64,000 nt of DNA from Candidatus Poribacteria bacterium (GTDB lineage: Bacteria; Poribacteria; WGA-4E; WGA-3G), in the NCBI GenBank assembly GCA_963665235.2, contig CAXXLX010000001.1:1152001-1216000 (forward strand), written 5' to 3'. Positions within the stretch are counted from its first letter, which is position 1; the number at the start of each line of letters is the position of its first letter. The notes under the pieces are model-generated. The model worked only from the letters and a program-made list of their open reading frames with translations. It was not told the origin of the DNA and did not search any database. Shown here in pieces: positions 49,401 through 57,386 of this stretch. The translations under genes were made by a program, and so were the position numbers.

Positions 49401-50582
49401 ATGGAATACCGTTCAAATATCTTATCAGACAAAATCACACTTAATTTTGATCGTGATGCCCAAGTGTCTGTCAAAGCCTTCATCGCACCGATTGAGCATA
49501 CGGTCTCCAATTTCCACGTCGACTGGGACGCATTGGCAAATCTACGCGTCACTGAACCAGAGAAGCGGTATCCCACATCAATTTTTCAGTCTTTTCTTCC
49601 ACCGGAACCGGTTTCAGTAGGCGAATGCTGGCAGATTGAAGAAGTGGGTGTTACGGAGTTGCTTCGGCAGCTGCATCCAAATCCGAAATTAATAGAAACA
49701 CACATTGATACCAATGATTCACGCGGGTTGTGGGGATGTCTCCGCGCATACAACGATAAATTTGCTGACATCACCTTTCGGATTCACGCAGCATTCGACT
49801 TTGAAGATGGGACGCTAACACCTTCACAGTTTAAAGGAAATCTGATAATTGACAGGCGTGAAAATAAAGTAACCTTCTTCAAAATGTACGTCCCTGAAGG
49901 CACAGTTAACCTCGATATCACTTGGAAAAAGGACAAAGAGCAGCTTTATAGAAGCACAGATGCAGGTCTATGTTCCCAAATGGAACTCCGTTCAGGAACA
50001 GAAGACGAAATGCAGAATGCTGACTTCACGGAAGCGATAACACAGAAAGAAGCGGAACGGGCACTGATACTTCGTTTCTACGAAATAGCGCAGATAAATT
50101 GGGTGCCCCCGGAGAAAGCAGTGGAATTGGCCGAGGAGCAGGTGAAGTTCATTCATGTTATCTCTATAGACGGACCATTACACGATGAATCTTGCTGAGG
50201 GAGTGGAAAAGGCTTGAGGGCAGTTGTCCTCTACTGGGATAGAATTATCGAATTTCTGAACGAAAACTTTATTAACACATGGGTTTCCAACGTTGAGTTA
50301 GAACGGACCCCTCGAAAGCAAACCTACATGGCGAAAAGACCTAAACGTAAATCCAAAACGTTTAATAGAACACATCCCTTAGCACAAGCCGTTATGAAAG
50401 GCTGGAAAAAAGATTCACCCGTAGATTGTTTAGTTATTTCCCCTGAATTTGATGTGATGGGAAAACTTCCACTTAATGATTTCTTTGATGACTGTTCGCA
50501 AAAGGATATTCCACAAGAGGATGCCTACCTTACCTTTCTCACGGAATCCTTAGAGGGTAAATTTCCGGGATTTGCCGAATGA
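49401..50582 (+). CDS. Selenoprotein N-like protein, copy 1 (393 aa; Sec at TGA 50196-98)
   Basis: DESC-TGA-GSGKGLR in frame with the 50214 ORF; hairpin at 50216-50231. Confidence 0.88.
50216..50231 (+). promoter_or_regulatory. Bacterial SECIS-like hairpin (also 51475-51490, 53442-53457, 54635-54650, 56582-56597)
   Basis: GAG(G/A)(G/A)C-AG(G/U)U-G(U/C)(C/U)CUC at a fixed +18 from UGA, with compensatory changes. Confidence 0.8.
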
Positions 50583-50677
50583 CTGGCAAAAGTGCATCCG
50601 AAAACGTGTATAAGCGAATCATTGCTTCTTCTGATAGCAATGGTATCCTATACCAAAAAGGAAGTTCATAACGAAAA

Positions 50678-53852: not shown

Positions 53853-55802
53853 ATGAAATCGACATCAAACAAAATAGGGCTCAATCTTGACCGTGACGCA
53901 GAAGTCAACGTCAAAGCCTTCATTGCACCGATCGAACATACGATATCCGGTTTCCACGTTGAGTGGGATGAATTGGCGAATTTACGCGTCGCCGAACCGG
54001 AAAAACAGCATTCCGCATCCGTTTTCCAAGCATTCCTCCCAGACGACCCCATCTCAGTTGGCGACCACTGGCAGATTGCAGGAGACAGTGTGCTGACATT
54101 ACTCCAGCAACTGCATTCCAATCCGAATTTGGATATACGCATCAATTCCGGTGATTCTCGCGGATTATGGGCATGCCTGCGCGCGTACAACGATAAATTC
54201 GCCGACATTGTATTTCGCATTCACGCGGAGTTCAAGTTCGAAGAGGGTCGGTTTACCCCCTCACAGTTTACGGGACACCTCGTGATGGACCGACTCGGAG
54301 AAAAGGTCGCTTTTTTCGAGATGTACGTCCCTGAGGGACCAGTAAACTTTGATGTTAGCTGGAATTCCATTGTCGATGCCGGCCTTTGCCCCCGGATGGA
54401 ACTCCGCGTCGGGACACAGAACCCAGTCCGAGATGCTGAATTCACAGAGGGGTCTATCACCCAAGAAGATGCCGAACGTATCCTGCGACGGCGTTTCTAT
54501 AAATGGGAAAAAATTAACTGGGTACCGCCGGAGCAGGCACTGGAAATAGCACAAGCCCAACAGAAACCGATTCATGTTATCTCAGTAGACGGACCGCTCG
54601 CCGATGAGGCGTGCTGAGGGAGCGGCAAAGGCCTGAGGGCAGGTGTCCTCTCTTACGATGAAACTATTGAATTCTTGAATGAAAACTTCATTAATACCTG
54701 GGTGTCGAATATCGTATTAGAGCGGACATCCAAAATGCGTAACTATGCAGTAAAGAGATTTGAAGATGGAGACAGAGCACTGTTTAACAAAACCCATCCA
54801 TTGGCAGAAGCCGTGATGAAGGGATGGAAAGCACATTCACCCGTAGACTGTTTGATTATATCGCCAGACCTTGAATTGATGGGCAGCCAACTCGTCAACG
54901 AACTCCTTGGTGCTGGCAGGAGTCTGTATAGCGATTACCTCACATTCCTCAAAGACTCCTTGGAAGGGAAACAGCCCGGATTAGGAAACCTCACTCTCAC
55001 CAGAGAATCTCCTTCACAGGCGGTGTTGGACGTTTTTCGGACCCCCACAGTCGGTTATCAAGACTATACCGTTGTTGTAATTGATACCATCGACTTTGAA
55101 AATGGTGGTACACTCGTTATTGACATTGAAGTCGGTAGAGATGAAGGGGAAGGTGAAGGTGCGTTCTATCTGTTTGACAGCAATACCGAACTTTCCACAG
55201 ATGCAGAAACCCCTAAAAACGTGCTTACGCAGAGATGGGTTGAAGCCGGTGCCACAAAGCAGCTCACACACCGCTTCAAGCACGGTCAACGTTTTAAGTT
55301 AGGTGCCACCGGTGATTGGGAGAGAGACGAACCCTCTGTCAATGCTTTCCGCGTAACAGCTTCTGTCCAGGAAAATTCAGATGAGGACACTTCAGATATA
55401 CTTTCAGCTGACTGGCGTGTTCCACTCAATAGGGCACACTCATCGGTGGAAATACAAGCTCTTTTTCGGGCACCGGGACACGGTTATCAAGATTACACCG
55501 TCATCAATATTGATACAACAGCGTTTGAAGAGGGGGGCACCCTCGTCATCTACGTCAAGGTCGGGAATGGAGACGCTGCCGGTTCATTTGATCTCTTTGA
55601 TGGCGACGCAGAACTCCCGACAGAAGGAATGCCTGAGGAAACCCTCGCCTCGTTCTGGGGGCTTGACCCCGATACAGCCACAACAATCCGCCATCATTTC
55701 GAGCAAGGCGAAGTTTTTAAACTCGGTGTCACCGGTGCTCAGTCCAGTAAAATAGGGGACACAAATACCTTTTACCTAAGGATTTCTGTAGAGGAAAACT
55801 AA
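53853..55802 (+). CDS. Selenoprotein N-like copy 4 (649 aa; Sec at TGA 54615-17; two C-terminal domains)
   Basis: DEAC-TGA-GSGKGLR; hairpin at 54635-54650. Confidence 0.88.
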
Positions 55803-57386
55803 GTGAACCCTAAAATCACGCTTAATCTTGATAGCAACGCAGAAGTGTCCATCAAAGGCTTCATCGCACCGATCGAATACACCCAATACAACTTCCACGT
55901 GGAGTGGGACGAATTGGCAAACTTTCAGGCTGCTGAACCGATAAAGCGGTATCCCGCATCGGTTTTTCAAGCATTTCTACCATCAGAGCCGGTTTCAGTG
56001 GGTGAATGCTGGCGGATTGGAGAAGAAAGCGCACTAACACTCCTACAACAACTGCAGCCTCAGCCAAGACTAAGACTGGATACCGATGACGAGGAATACA
56101 CCGGAATATGGGCCTGTTTACGGGCCCACAATGATACACTCGCTGACATCGCATTCCGCGTGCATGCAGAATTCATCATGAAGAGCGGCAAATTCACGCC
56201 ATCACAGTTCGCAGGGCATTTAGTTATAGACCGAATTCAACAGAAAATTGTGTCTTTCAAAATGTTCGTGCCGCCAACAACACTCAACTTCGATGCCGGT
56301 TGGAAACAGGAAAATGGAAACTATTTTGCGGAAATCGGGTATTGCCCACAGATTCAACTCTCTGCGGGAATATATCCCGCTGATGTAGAATACAAAACAG
56401 CAATCACACAGGAAGAAGCAGAACGCAGGCTAATATCACATTACTACATGTTCCACAAAATTAACTGGGTATCGCTTGAGGAAGCGTTTGAACTCGCTCC
56501 TATTCAACAGAAACCGATACATGCTGTCTCATTAGATGGACCGCTTTTCGACGAATCGTGCTGAGGCACCGGCAGAATCTTGAGGACAGGTGTCCTCTCT
56601 AAAAACGCAATTATGGAATTCCTGAACGAAAATTTCATCAACACATGGGTCGAAAACGCAGAATTGGGACGAACAGGCAGCTTGCAAGACCCTATTGCAA
56701 AAAGACGGAAGCGGGAAGGAAAAACCTTCAACACAGACCACGCATTAGCACGAACTATTATGAAAGGATGGGTAAAAGGTTCACCGGTAGATTGTTTCGT
56801 TATCTCACACGATTTTGAACTGATGGGGAGTGTAGACTTCAACGAATTCCTTGACAACCTGCAACGACCTGAGGATGAACCTGTGGCATACATGCAATTT
56901 CTCAAGGATTCATTGCAAGACAAACGCCCCGGACTCGGGGACATCCTCCTTACCCCCGAGCAACCTTCGCAAGAGGTAGTAGACACCTTTCGTGCCCCAA
57001 AGATGGCGCATCAGGATTATACCGTTGTCTACATCGATGTCACAGCGTTTGAAGATGGCGGCACACTCACTGCTAACATCCAAGTCGGTAGAGACAGCGG
57101 AATAGGCATCTTCCATCTGCTCGACGGCGACAAAAAACTTCCAACAGAAAAAGTGCCTGAGGGCATTGCCCCTGAAAAATGGAACAACCAAGAAAGCACT
57201 GAATACGAGAAAGCCCTCGACGCGCTAACTAGAGTCTGGGGTATATTTCCCGGTCAAACCGGACAAATAACCTATCAGTTCAAGCGTGGTCAACGCTTTA
57301 AGCTCTGTGCAACCGGAGACCAGTGGGGTGGAGTAGGCGACATAAACGCTTTTCACGTAAAAATTGCTGTGGAAGCTGCAGACTGA
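55803..57386 (+). CDS. Selenoprotein N-like copy 5 (527 aa; Sec at TGA 56562-64; one C-terminal domain)
   Basis: DESC-TGA-GTGRILR; hairpin at 56582-56597. Confidence 0.88.

Follow-up and report, generated by a model that had tools for sequence, protein, structure and literature searches.

How does a sponge-symbiont bacterium, Candidatus Poribacteria, read five adjacent genes that each carry a TGA within the open frame, and what is the small hairpin that follows each of these codons? The genes are relatives of the human muscle-disease protein selenoprotein N and stand as five tandem same-strand paralogues (+, 49401-57386), directly downstream of leuD, in a stretch of 64,000 nucleotides (contig CAXXLX010000001.1 of assembly GCA_963665235.2, positions 1,152,001 to 1,216,000), which is called the window below and whose numbering is used for the array. 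It is proposed that the hairpins are very probably functional bacterial selenocysteine insertion sequence (SECIS) elements placed inside selenoprotein N-like coding regions. Any gene for a bacterial selenoprotein should possess a hairpin of this kind; the family described here allows it to be compared over many copies and with its animal relatives.

Hairpins behind the five probable selenocysteine codons

Across the five genes the selenocysteine (Sec, U) site reads S/A-C-U-G-S/T-G-K/R, with S-C-U-G, the name given to the redox motif of selenoprotein N (PMC12839072), in four copies and A-C-U-G in one. Each copy has a 16-nt hairpin, GAGRRC-AGKU-GYYCUC, whose 6-bp stem starts 17 nt after the UGA. 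The pattern TGC-TGA-N17-GAGRRC-AGKT-GYYCTC matches the + strand at 50193, 51452, 53419, 54612 and 56559, five matches against 0.00 expected from 100 shuffles, and the hairpins stand where an earlier, sequence-only reading of this DNA had placed them, with the stems and loops as it had read them. Folding energies (dG) are given in kcal/mol and refer to simple, bare hairpins.

50196..50198, + strand: Sec-site UGA of gene 1
50216..50231, + strand: hairpin 1, GAGGGC-AGUU-GUCCUC, dG -7.7
51455..51457, + strand: Sec-site UGA of gene 2
51475..51490, + strand: hairpin 2, GAGAGC-AGGU-GCUCUC, all Watson-Crick, dG -8.3
53422..53424, + strand: Sec-site UGA of gene 3, residue 254
53442..53457, + strand: hairpin 3, GAGGGC-AGGU-GUCCUC, dG -7.7
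54615..54617, + strand: Sec-site UGA of gene 4
54635..54650, + strand: hairpin 4, GAGGGC-AGGU-GUCCUC, dG -7.7
56562..56564, + strand: Sec-site UGA of gene 5
56582..56597, + strand: hairpin 5, GAGGAC-AGGU-GUCCUC, dG -8.3

The consensus model of the bacterial SECIS (bSECIS) behind bSECISearch (Zhang and Gladyshev 2005), in the passages that restate it in PMC13188914, has a loop of 3-9 nt on a stem of 4-16 bp, a G within the first two loop positions that is mostly followed by G or U, a UGA-to-loop distance of 16-37 nt and an energy of -7.5 kcal/mol or lower. All five copies fall within every one of these limits, being intragenic with a 4-nt loop (AGGU or AGUU), a 6-bp stem, a UGA-to-loop distance of 23 nt and energies of -7.7 to -8.3. 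By the same measures 40 of the 1129 TGA triplets on the + strand of the window are followed by a compliant hairpin at or below -7.5, the five Sec sites included. The hairpins encode the peptides RAVV, RAGA, RAGV (twice) and RTGV. Four copies write the Arg as AGG and the fifth as AGA, in agreement with the earlier statement that its codon is always one of these two. That reading had also spoken of all five UGAs, which is right for the Sec sites, each of which has its hairpin, but the five genes contain nine in-frame TGAs; besides the five Sec sites there are three terminators (50580, 53815 and 57384) and one TGA at a Trp codon of gene 2 (50789), and none of these four is followed by a compliant hairpin (best -1.9, or none). 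The genes are as follows.

49401..50582, + strand: gene 1, selenoprotein N-like, 393 residues when read through, motif S-C-U-G-S-G-K, TGA stop at 50580
50678..52673, + strand: gene 2, probably disabled, with an extra TGA at a conserved Trp codon and a frame-shifting 10-nt duplication
52663..53817, + strand: gene 3 (P0002), 384 residues when read through, its GTG start overlapping the end of gene 2
53853..55802, + strand: gene 4 (P0001), 649 residues when read through, with a long C-terminal extension without a Pfam match
55803..57386, + strand: gene 5 (P0004), 527 residues when read through, motif S-C-U-G-T-G-R

The genome has the machinery that such elements call for, which bears out, together with the place, size, loop G and energy of the hairpins, the earlier assignment to the bacterial, SelB-dependent type. 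It encodes SelB (357 bits; frame G000:C1:2393270-2395165) with SelB-wing_2 and SelB-wing_3 domains, its C-terminal winged-helix part comprising about residues 449-632, a tRNA-SeC (tca) 77 nt after selB (G000:C1:2393270-2395331), SelA (601 bits) and SelD (359 bits; C1:3841015-3841941); the selD frame is interrupted by an in-frame TGA, and judged from its sequence selD is itself a selenoprotein gene.

An AlphaFold model (predicted local distance difference test score 87.5) places C253-U254 at the N-terminal end of helix 255-266, within a domain of thioredoxin-like fold, and Foldseek matches to the model include DsbH, AGR2/3, ERp19 and a UAS domain. Part of this helix is encoded by the codons of the hairpin (+6 to +11 relative to Sec). 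A search of the ESM Atlas with a natural Gly form (P0007) returned a Poribacteria cluster at 0.78 only and was not informative.

By analogy with E. coli fdhF, we infer SelB binding and Sec insertion at the five UGAs. With the UGA in the ribosomal A site, the hairpin should lie just outside the mRNA channel, its loop beginning 23 nt after the UGA; the G-G/U-U loop on the 6-bp G+C-rich stem would be bound by the C-terminal winged-helix domain of SelB, which would deliver Sec-tRNA(Sec) (anticodon UCA) so that the UGA is read as selenocysteine. The protein would then carry a redox-active Cys-Sec pair where the first helix of the thioredoxin-like domain begins. The nucleotides of the hairpin at the same time code for the conserved helix residues Leu-Arg-Ala/Thr-Gly/Val-Val/Ala-Leu, so that the RNA signal sits in the synonymous or near-synonymous choices of six codons.

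Pairing and codon choice across the family

The array belongs to a family with more than 800 matches in 131 of 176 Poribacteria-phylum genomes; among the matches listed, each has retained a single in-frame TGA past which the frame stays open, except that gene 2 of the window has two. Alignment A1 holds 97 distinct, ungapped 75-nt Sec-site sequences, the five of the window and 92 from 60 loci of the Poribacteria phylum (within L018-L092). The covariation claimed for the window copies needs a correction: within the five copies there is a single two-sided change (copy 2, G-C to A-U), the others being one-sided (G-U to G-C and G-U to A-U), and the real evidence comes from the 97 homologous sites.

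All 97 sequences form a hairpin of at least 6 bp that starts 18-21 nt from the U of the UGA, with loops of 4-6 nt, stems of 6-9 bp and a G in the first two loop positions without exception; as simple hairpins 73 of the 97 reach -7.5. The helix first read from the window is paired in 93.1% of the cells of A1, a value reached by none of 500 shuffles, and controls with the 3' partner slid along pair in 43-83% of cells. Two-sided changes occur at three of the six stem pairs (22 cells). RNAalifold recovers the same helix from A1 and predicts no further conserved one in the 66 nt behind the UGA. A longer lower helix starting at the UGA itself, which appeared in two single-sequence folds, is given no support by the alignment fold.

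The variable stem pairs are columns 33-42 and 34-41, and the fixed features are U39 (97/97) and a loop G-K-U at constant distance. Pair 33-42, both sides of which are mostly synonymous third positions, is G-C in 37 sequences, G-U in 22 and A-U in 18, and never A-C (n = 97). In the orthologue L059 both synonymous Leu third positions have changed jointly, TTG...CTC to TTA...CTT, turning a G-C into an A-U pair. RAGE, RARV and one GCG variant break the helix in its first register and pair instead in a register shifted by 2 nt, the RAGE forms as GAGGGC-AGGUGA-GCUCUC. This second register (columns 30-35 with 42-47) does account for those variants; as a helix of the whole family it was rejected, with 83% of cells paired and values as high in 90 of 500 shuffles. 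In a divergent subfamily (C-U-A-N-G-K...LRAGPLS, 36-42% identical) the hairpin has 7 bp, GAGGGCG-GGUC-CGCUCUC, and the same start base, and one member of this subfamily carries C-G in place of G-C, a pair swap. The loop G-K-U lies at columns 37-39 in both subfamilies although their stem registers differ.

Because the peptide is itself conserved, codon choice is the sharper test. The codons of the hairpin are listed here with the genome-wide usage of the same codons.

Arg +7: AGR in 97/97; genome usage 19% (AGA and AGG)
Leu +11: CTC in 94/96; genome usage 25%
Leu +6: NTG in 91/92; genome usage 31%
Gly +9: GGT in 64/64; genome usage 25%
Val +9: GTT in 31/31; genome usage 30%
Leu +20, the control, nine codons downstream of Leu +11: all six Leu codons in use

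As a null model the same peptides were re-encoded 5820 times with random synonymous codons at the usage of the genome; 10.7% of these draws fold at least as stably as the weakest hairpin observed, and 4.5% come to -7.5 or lower. Codon choice preserves the hairpin beyond what the conserved peptide demands. The hundreds of paralogous copies amount to a natural mutagenesis series for one SECIS, from which it can be read which positions vary and which do not.

Forms without selenocysteine and competing explanations

The sequence-only reading had named equal conservation of the hairpin in Cys-containing homologues as an observation that would tell against it. Nine non-Sec forms with DNA, eight distinct Gly sequences and one Cys form, bear on this point, and all of them have the hairpin, a result that at face value goes against the SECIS reading. 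The Gly forms come from one orthologous subclade of 21 loci, an exported one, in which 12 have TGA and nine have Gly at the site (L049-L054, L061, L062 and L065, orthologues of P0007), with TGA replaced by GGA or GGC and not by a Cys codon. The nine loci give eight distinct sequences (L050 is identical to L049) and fall into at least four lineages interleaved with Sec forms. A redox motif without Sec suggests a changed or lost catalytic role. In L065 the neighbouring Cys is also changed, to Ser.

The 6-bp stem is kept in all eight distinct Gly sequences. The loop is AACU in L049 and L051 (2 of the 8, one lineage), the only sequences of 105 without the loop G, and one Gly form has the loop AGUC, with a change at the U that all 97 Sec forms share. 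Compared with its nearest Sec relative, a Gly form has changed only 16-22% of its synonymous codons; the Gly forms are thus recent, about one change per hairpin would be expected even without any constraint, and for this reason their retention of the hairpin does not refute the SECIS reading and is uninformative here. Hairpin codons have changed in 7 of 49 cases in the Gly forms against 9.4 expected, and in 4 of 71 cases in Sec-Sec pairs against 10.6 expected, three of those four being the coordinated set of L059; these counts, which are small and not independent, point towards a relaxed constraint on the hairpin after loss of Sec. The recurrent Sec-to-Gly replacements may serve as a clock for the decay of a SECIS once it is no longer needed.

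The Cys form, L096, has CGAGCG-GGUC-CGCUUG in the same place (-7.6), with CGA for Arg, and is the single Cys-form locus found in a metagenome scan. An old Cys-only clade comprises 16 proteins; searches of the genome contigs with an alignment and with P0154 found no relative. In a homologue of 526 residues from a metagenome, P0126, Trp takes the place of Sec (C-W-G-T-M-D) and the peptide downstream of it has diverged (S-L-R-G-D-V-L); the protein has no counterpart in the 176 genomes, where its best match is 58% identical and carries TGA.

Several observations weigh against the hairpins being SECIS elements. The hairpin is present in 9/9 of the non-Sec forms with DNA, and in gene 2 it is perfect although the gene looks disabled. 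As simple hairpins 24 of the 97 family members fall short of -7.5, the worst at -5.9. The peptide LR(A/E)G.L is conserved out to animals, so that a part of the nucleotide conservation is protein-coding. Rfam covariance models run over window positions 49300-57500 gave three weak matches at E <= 10 and no SECIS family. In the fdhF SECIS of E. coli, SelB contacts G23, U24 and the bulged U17, and the bulged U has no counterpart in the Poribacteria hairpins.

These points lend themselves to other explanations. The hairpin could be an accessory UGA-proximal element for recoding or pausing, akin to the selenocysteine redefinition element (SRE) of eukaryotic SELENON. It might or might not involve SelB, whose main binding element would be larger or located at another place. 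Its persistence after loss of the UGA would suit such a role, as would human SELENON, where according to passages in PMC5727441 and PMC8584023 a small UGA-adjacent hairpin, the SRE, enhances recoding and is not the SECIS. We nevertheless hold this to be quite improbable, for the hairpin alone lies within all limits of the bSECIS model, RNAalifold detects no second conserved helix in the 66 nt that follow the UGA, the loop G-K-U keeps its columns in both subfamilies despite the differing stem registers, and the loop G is missing only in the Gly forms L049 and L051 (2 of 8 distinct sequences) and in none of the 97 Sec forms.

Alternatively, the hairpin might be a by-product of protein coding, the conserved L-R-A-G-V/A-L codons happening to be self-complementary with no function at the RNA level. 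Bacterial Cys forms, Gly forms and animal selenoprotein N do all share the conserved peptide, the stem persists in all nine non-Sec forms with DNA, and Ala-Gly-Pro written as GCG-GGU-CCG is self-complementary in itself. Against this, the codons at synonymous sites are far more uniform than their usage in the genome would give (AGR in 97/97 against 19%, CTC in 94/96 against 25%), just 4.5-10.7% of synonymous re-encodings fold as well, the synonymous changes in L059 are paired, A-C at pair 33-42 does not occur among the 97, and hairpin codons are under-changed in Sec-Sec pairs (4/71 against 10.6) and near expectation in the Gly forms (7/49 against 9.4). A mere coding effect is therefore very hard to maintain.

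Scarcely credible is the remaining explanation, that translation really ends at the TGAs of genes that are split or dead, with the hairpin as a terminator or attenuator, or that TGA is reassigned genome-wide: public gene calls do end at the TGA, some 256 residues in, and gene 2 bears two further lesions, but among the matches listed from 131 of 176 genomes all keep this TGA with a conserved open frame beyond, Cys forms span the site, in the AlphaFold model it takes the active-site position of a thioredoxin-like fold, which depends on the part encoded downstream, the hairpin has no U-tract behind it, and three of the five genes end at TGA, which is thus still a stop. A functional bacterial SECIS in each gene remains the explanation that we favour.

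The protein family and its relation to known systems

Pfam and NCBIfam assign no family to four of the read-through proteins, and a PDB sequence search at E <= 1 gave no match. A homology search returned 2107 matches, mostly of about 256 residues, and all named ones are from Candidatus Poribacteria; these database proteins are products cut at the TGA, and with the public gene models truncated at about 256 residues a large family of selenoproteins is overlooked. Phmmer over 1.84 billion representatives gave 388 clusters at 50% identity, many of them ending right before the Sec residue; the clusters include bacterial forms that have Cys-Cys at the site, a UniRef entry named Selenoprotein N from the hagfish Eptatretus burgeri (E 6.4e-19) and a Nematostella protein (E 3.0e-20). 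In BLASTP the hagfish protein is 33% identical over 222 residues across the Sec site (E 6e-30), and a bacterial Cys form 34% over 385 residues with C aligned to U. By these sequence comparisons the array proteins are homologues of animal selenoprotein N, in a family greatly expanded in Poribacteria. A full-text literature search found no paper on bacterial selenoprotein N, and a 2026 review of prokaryotic selenoproteomes does not mention the family in its main text, though its supplements may list it.

Both animal gene models are wrong at the Sec site: that of the hagfish (P0269) skips U-G and that of Nematostella (P0256) has an unrelated inserted stretch, so automatic annotation mishandles the selenoprotein N UGA in animals too. 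A metagenome protein of 668 residues, P0131, is a Cys form fused to an N-terminal extracytoplasmic function (ECF)-type sigma factor (Sigma70_r2, r4_2) with a hydrophobic stretch between; no sigma gene adjoins the array in this window.

Within the array, gene 2 has its extra TGA at 50789-50791, where all paralogues and orthologues seen carry Trp (H-V-E-W-D-E-L), and a 10-nt tandem duplication at 52400-52419 (ATCTATGTTC twice) that shifts the frame of the C-terminal domain; it is probably a young pseudogene or an assembly error. Genes 2, 4 (54960-55799) and 5 have long C-terminal extensions in which a domain of about 130 residues (...QDYTVV.ID..AFE.GGTL...F.LFD...), without a Pfam match, occurs once or twice. 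Upstream, a gene for an RRXRR-family protein (45096-46211) overlaps the start of leuC (46192-47640) by 20 nt, and a PIN-domain toxin gene with an antitoxin-like gene (dnstrm_HI1420; 47877-48706) lies between leuC and leuD (48769-49350).

The array had been described as an animal-type selenoprotein fitted to bacterial decoding. Homology with the animal protein stands; the implied direction does not. In a maximum-likelihood tree of 21 rows, which were hand-chosen, with Sec rows outside the window all from Poribacteria and Cys forms without taxon names, the two animal sequences stand apart on a long branch of their own, bacterial Cys forms are the sister group of the main Poribacteria clade (support 97/93), and the second Poribacteria subfamily branches off deeply as a clade by itself, the backbone being unresolved. 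Nothing in it favours a transfer from animal to bacterium, and an old bacterial family is at least as likely. The proteins share the S-C-U-G motif with animal selenoprotein N. The animal protein has an EF-hand and a membrane anchor, whereas the bacterial forms have neither and the window copies begin directly with the conserved domain; the absence of these features is a weak test, for the animal P0256 and P0269 are likewise without a Pfam match at E <= 0.001.

Animal selenoprotein N genes use a SECIS in the 3' untranslated region, with SBP2 and eEFSec, and their SRE is only a helper. With Sec at position 462 and the hagfish alignment, human R469 falls on the bacterial Arg +7; the AGR codon of this Arg makes up one half of the hairpin's 5' arm. 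The bacterial hairpin and the SELENON SRE are alike in lying next to the UGA and in overlapping homologous codons, as judged by the protein alignment. The disease changes G463, R466 and R469 fall in the SELENON SRE, according to passages in PMC3541580 and PMC8584023, and Mariotti et al. 2015, in the part concerned (PMC4561486), proposed a descent from bacterial SECIS elements for SREs, or at least for the ones in selenophosphate synthetase (SPS) genes. It is conceivable, though we think it rather unlikely, that the two hairpins are the same element by descent, an intragenic SECIS having been passed to or exchanged with eukaryotes and there downgraded to a helper. Hairpins over homologous codons make the published proposal directly testable, and if the two hairpins do share descent, selenoprotein N, in which the SRE was functionally defined and SRE mutations cause myopathy, would offer a second and cleaner test of SRE origin. 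An alignment by codons across the hairpin is possible for bacterial Sec forms, bacterial Cys forms and animal Sec forms alike. The family ties a human disease gene with a UGA-adjacent hairpin to bacterial genes with a putative SECIS over the homologous codons.

Closer at hand are the other selenoprotein genes of the same genome. A scan for read-through genes with Cys near U gave 11 candidates, four of which are window copies; gene 1 is not among them, so the filters of the scan miss real cases. Two further loci, L106 and L107, were rejected as read-through genes, having no convincing family. The hairpins of the others are listed here.

selD: AGCUCC-GGG-GGAGCU, stem starting 14 nt from U
FdhA-type oxidoreductase gene: CGUUGCC-GGGCU-GGCAGCG, stem starting 14 nt from U
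two AhpC/TSA (peroxiredoxin-type) genes: GCAACUC-GGU/GUU-GAGUUGC, stem starting 17 nt from U
gene for a WD40 protein with G-M-T-U-G-G-C: AAAGUGCA-GGA-UGCACUUU, stem starting 18 nt from U

The last gene (L104, G000:C1:2847198-2848901) encodes a WD40-repeat protein with the motif in a terminal domain, which we take to resemble the metal-binding motif G-M-T-C-x-x-C with Sec for the first Cys; no metal-binding family is among the Pfam matches listed for it. Like the array, these genes have an in-frame UGA followed by a G+C-rich hairpin of 6-8 bp with G first in a small loop; unlike it, their stems begin 11-15 nt after the UGA (17 in the array), their stem sequences are unrelated and their loops are GGG, GGGCU, GGU, GUU and GGA. 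The five copies had been put forward as a candidate SECIS consensus for the lineage, and this did not hold up: the strict motif UGA-N17-stem-AGKU-stem occurs in the 5.3-Mb genome at the five array sites and in three unrelated places only, and the five other read-through genes use other stems. The exact motif is family-specific, and only the general form is common.

With the bSECIS model the array hairpins share the intragenic stem-loop just 3' of the Sec UGA and the small loop with G followed by G or U. They differ from it in that the Poribacteria element is unusually uniform over hundreds of paralogues, lies within the codons of a conserved helix peptide and, by way of a CUCUC run, can switch from one register of pairing to another. 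For fdhF, the AGGU apex named in the sequence-only reading was confirmed from the E. coli K-12 sequence, where the UGA is followed by 17 nt and then by AGGUCU closed by GC/GC. The fdhF and Poribacteria elements both have an apical GC-AGGU over the Ala-Gly codons GCA-GGU, on the same side of the UGA and on a similar small upper helix, whereas the loop starts 17 nt after the UGA in fdhF and 23 nt after it in Poribacteria, and comprises six nucleotides (AGGUCU) in the former and four (AGGU or AGUU) in the latter.

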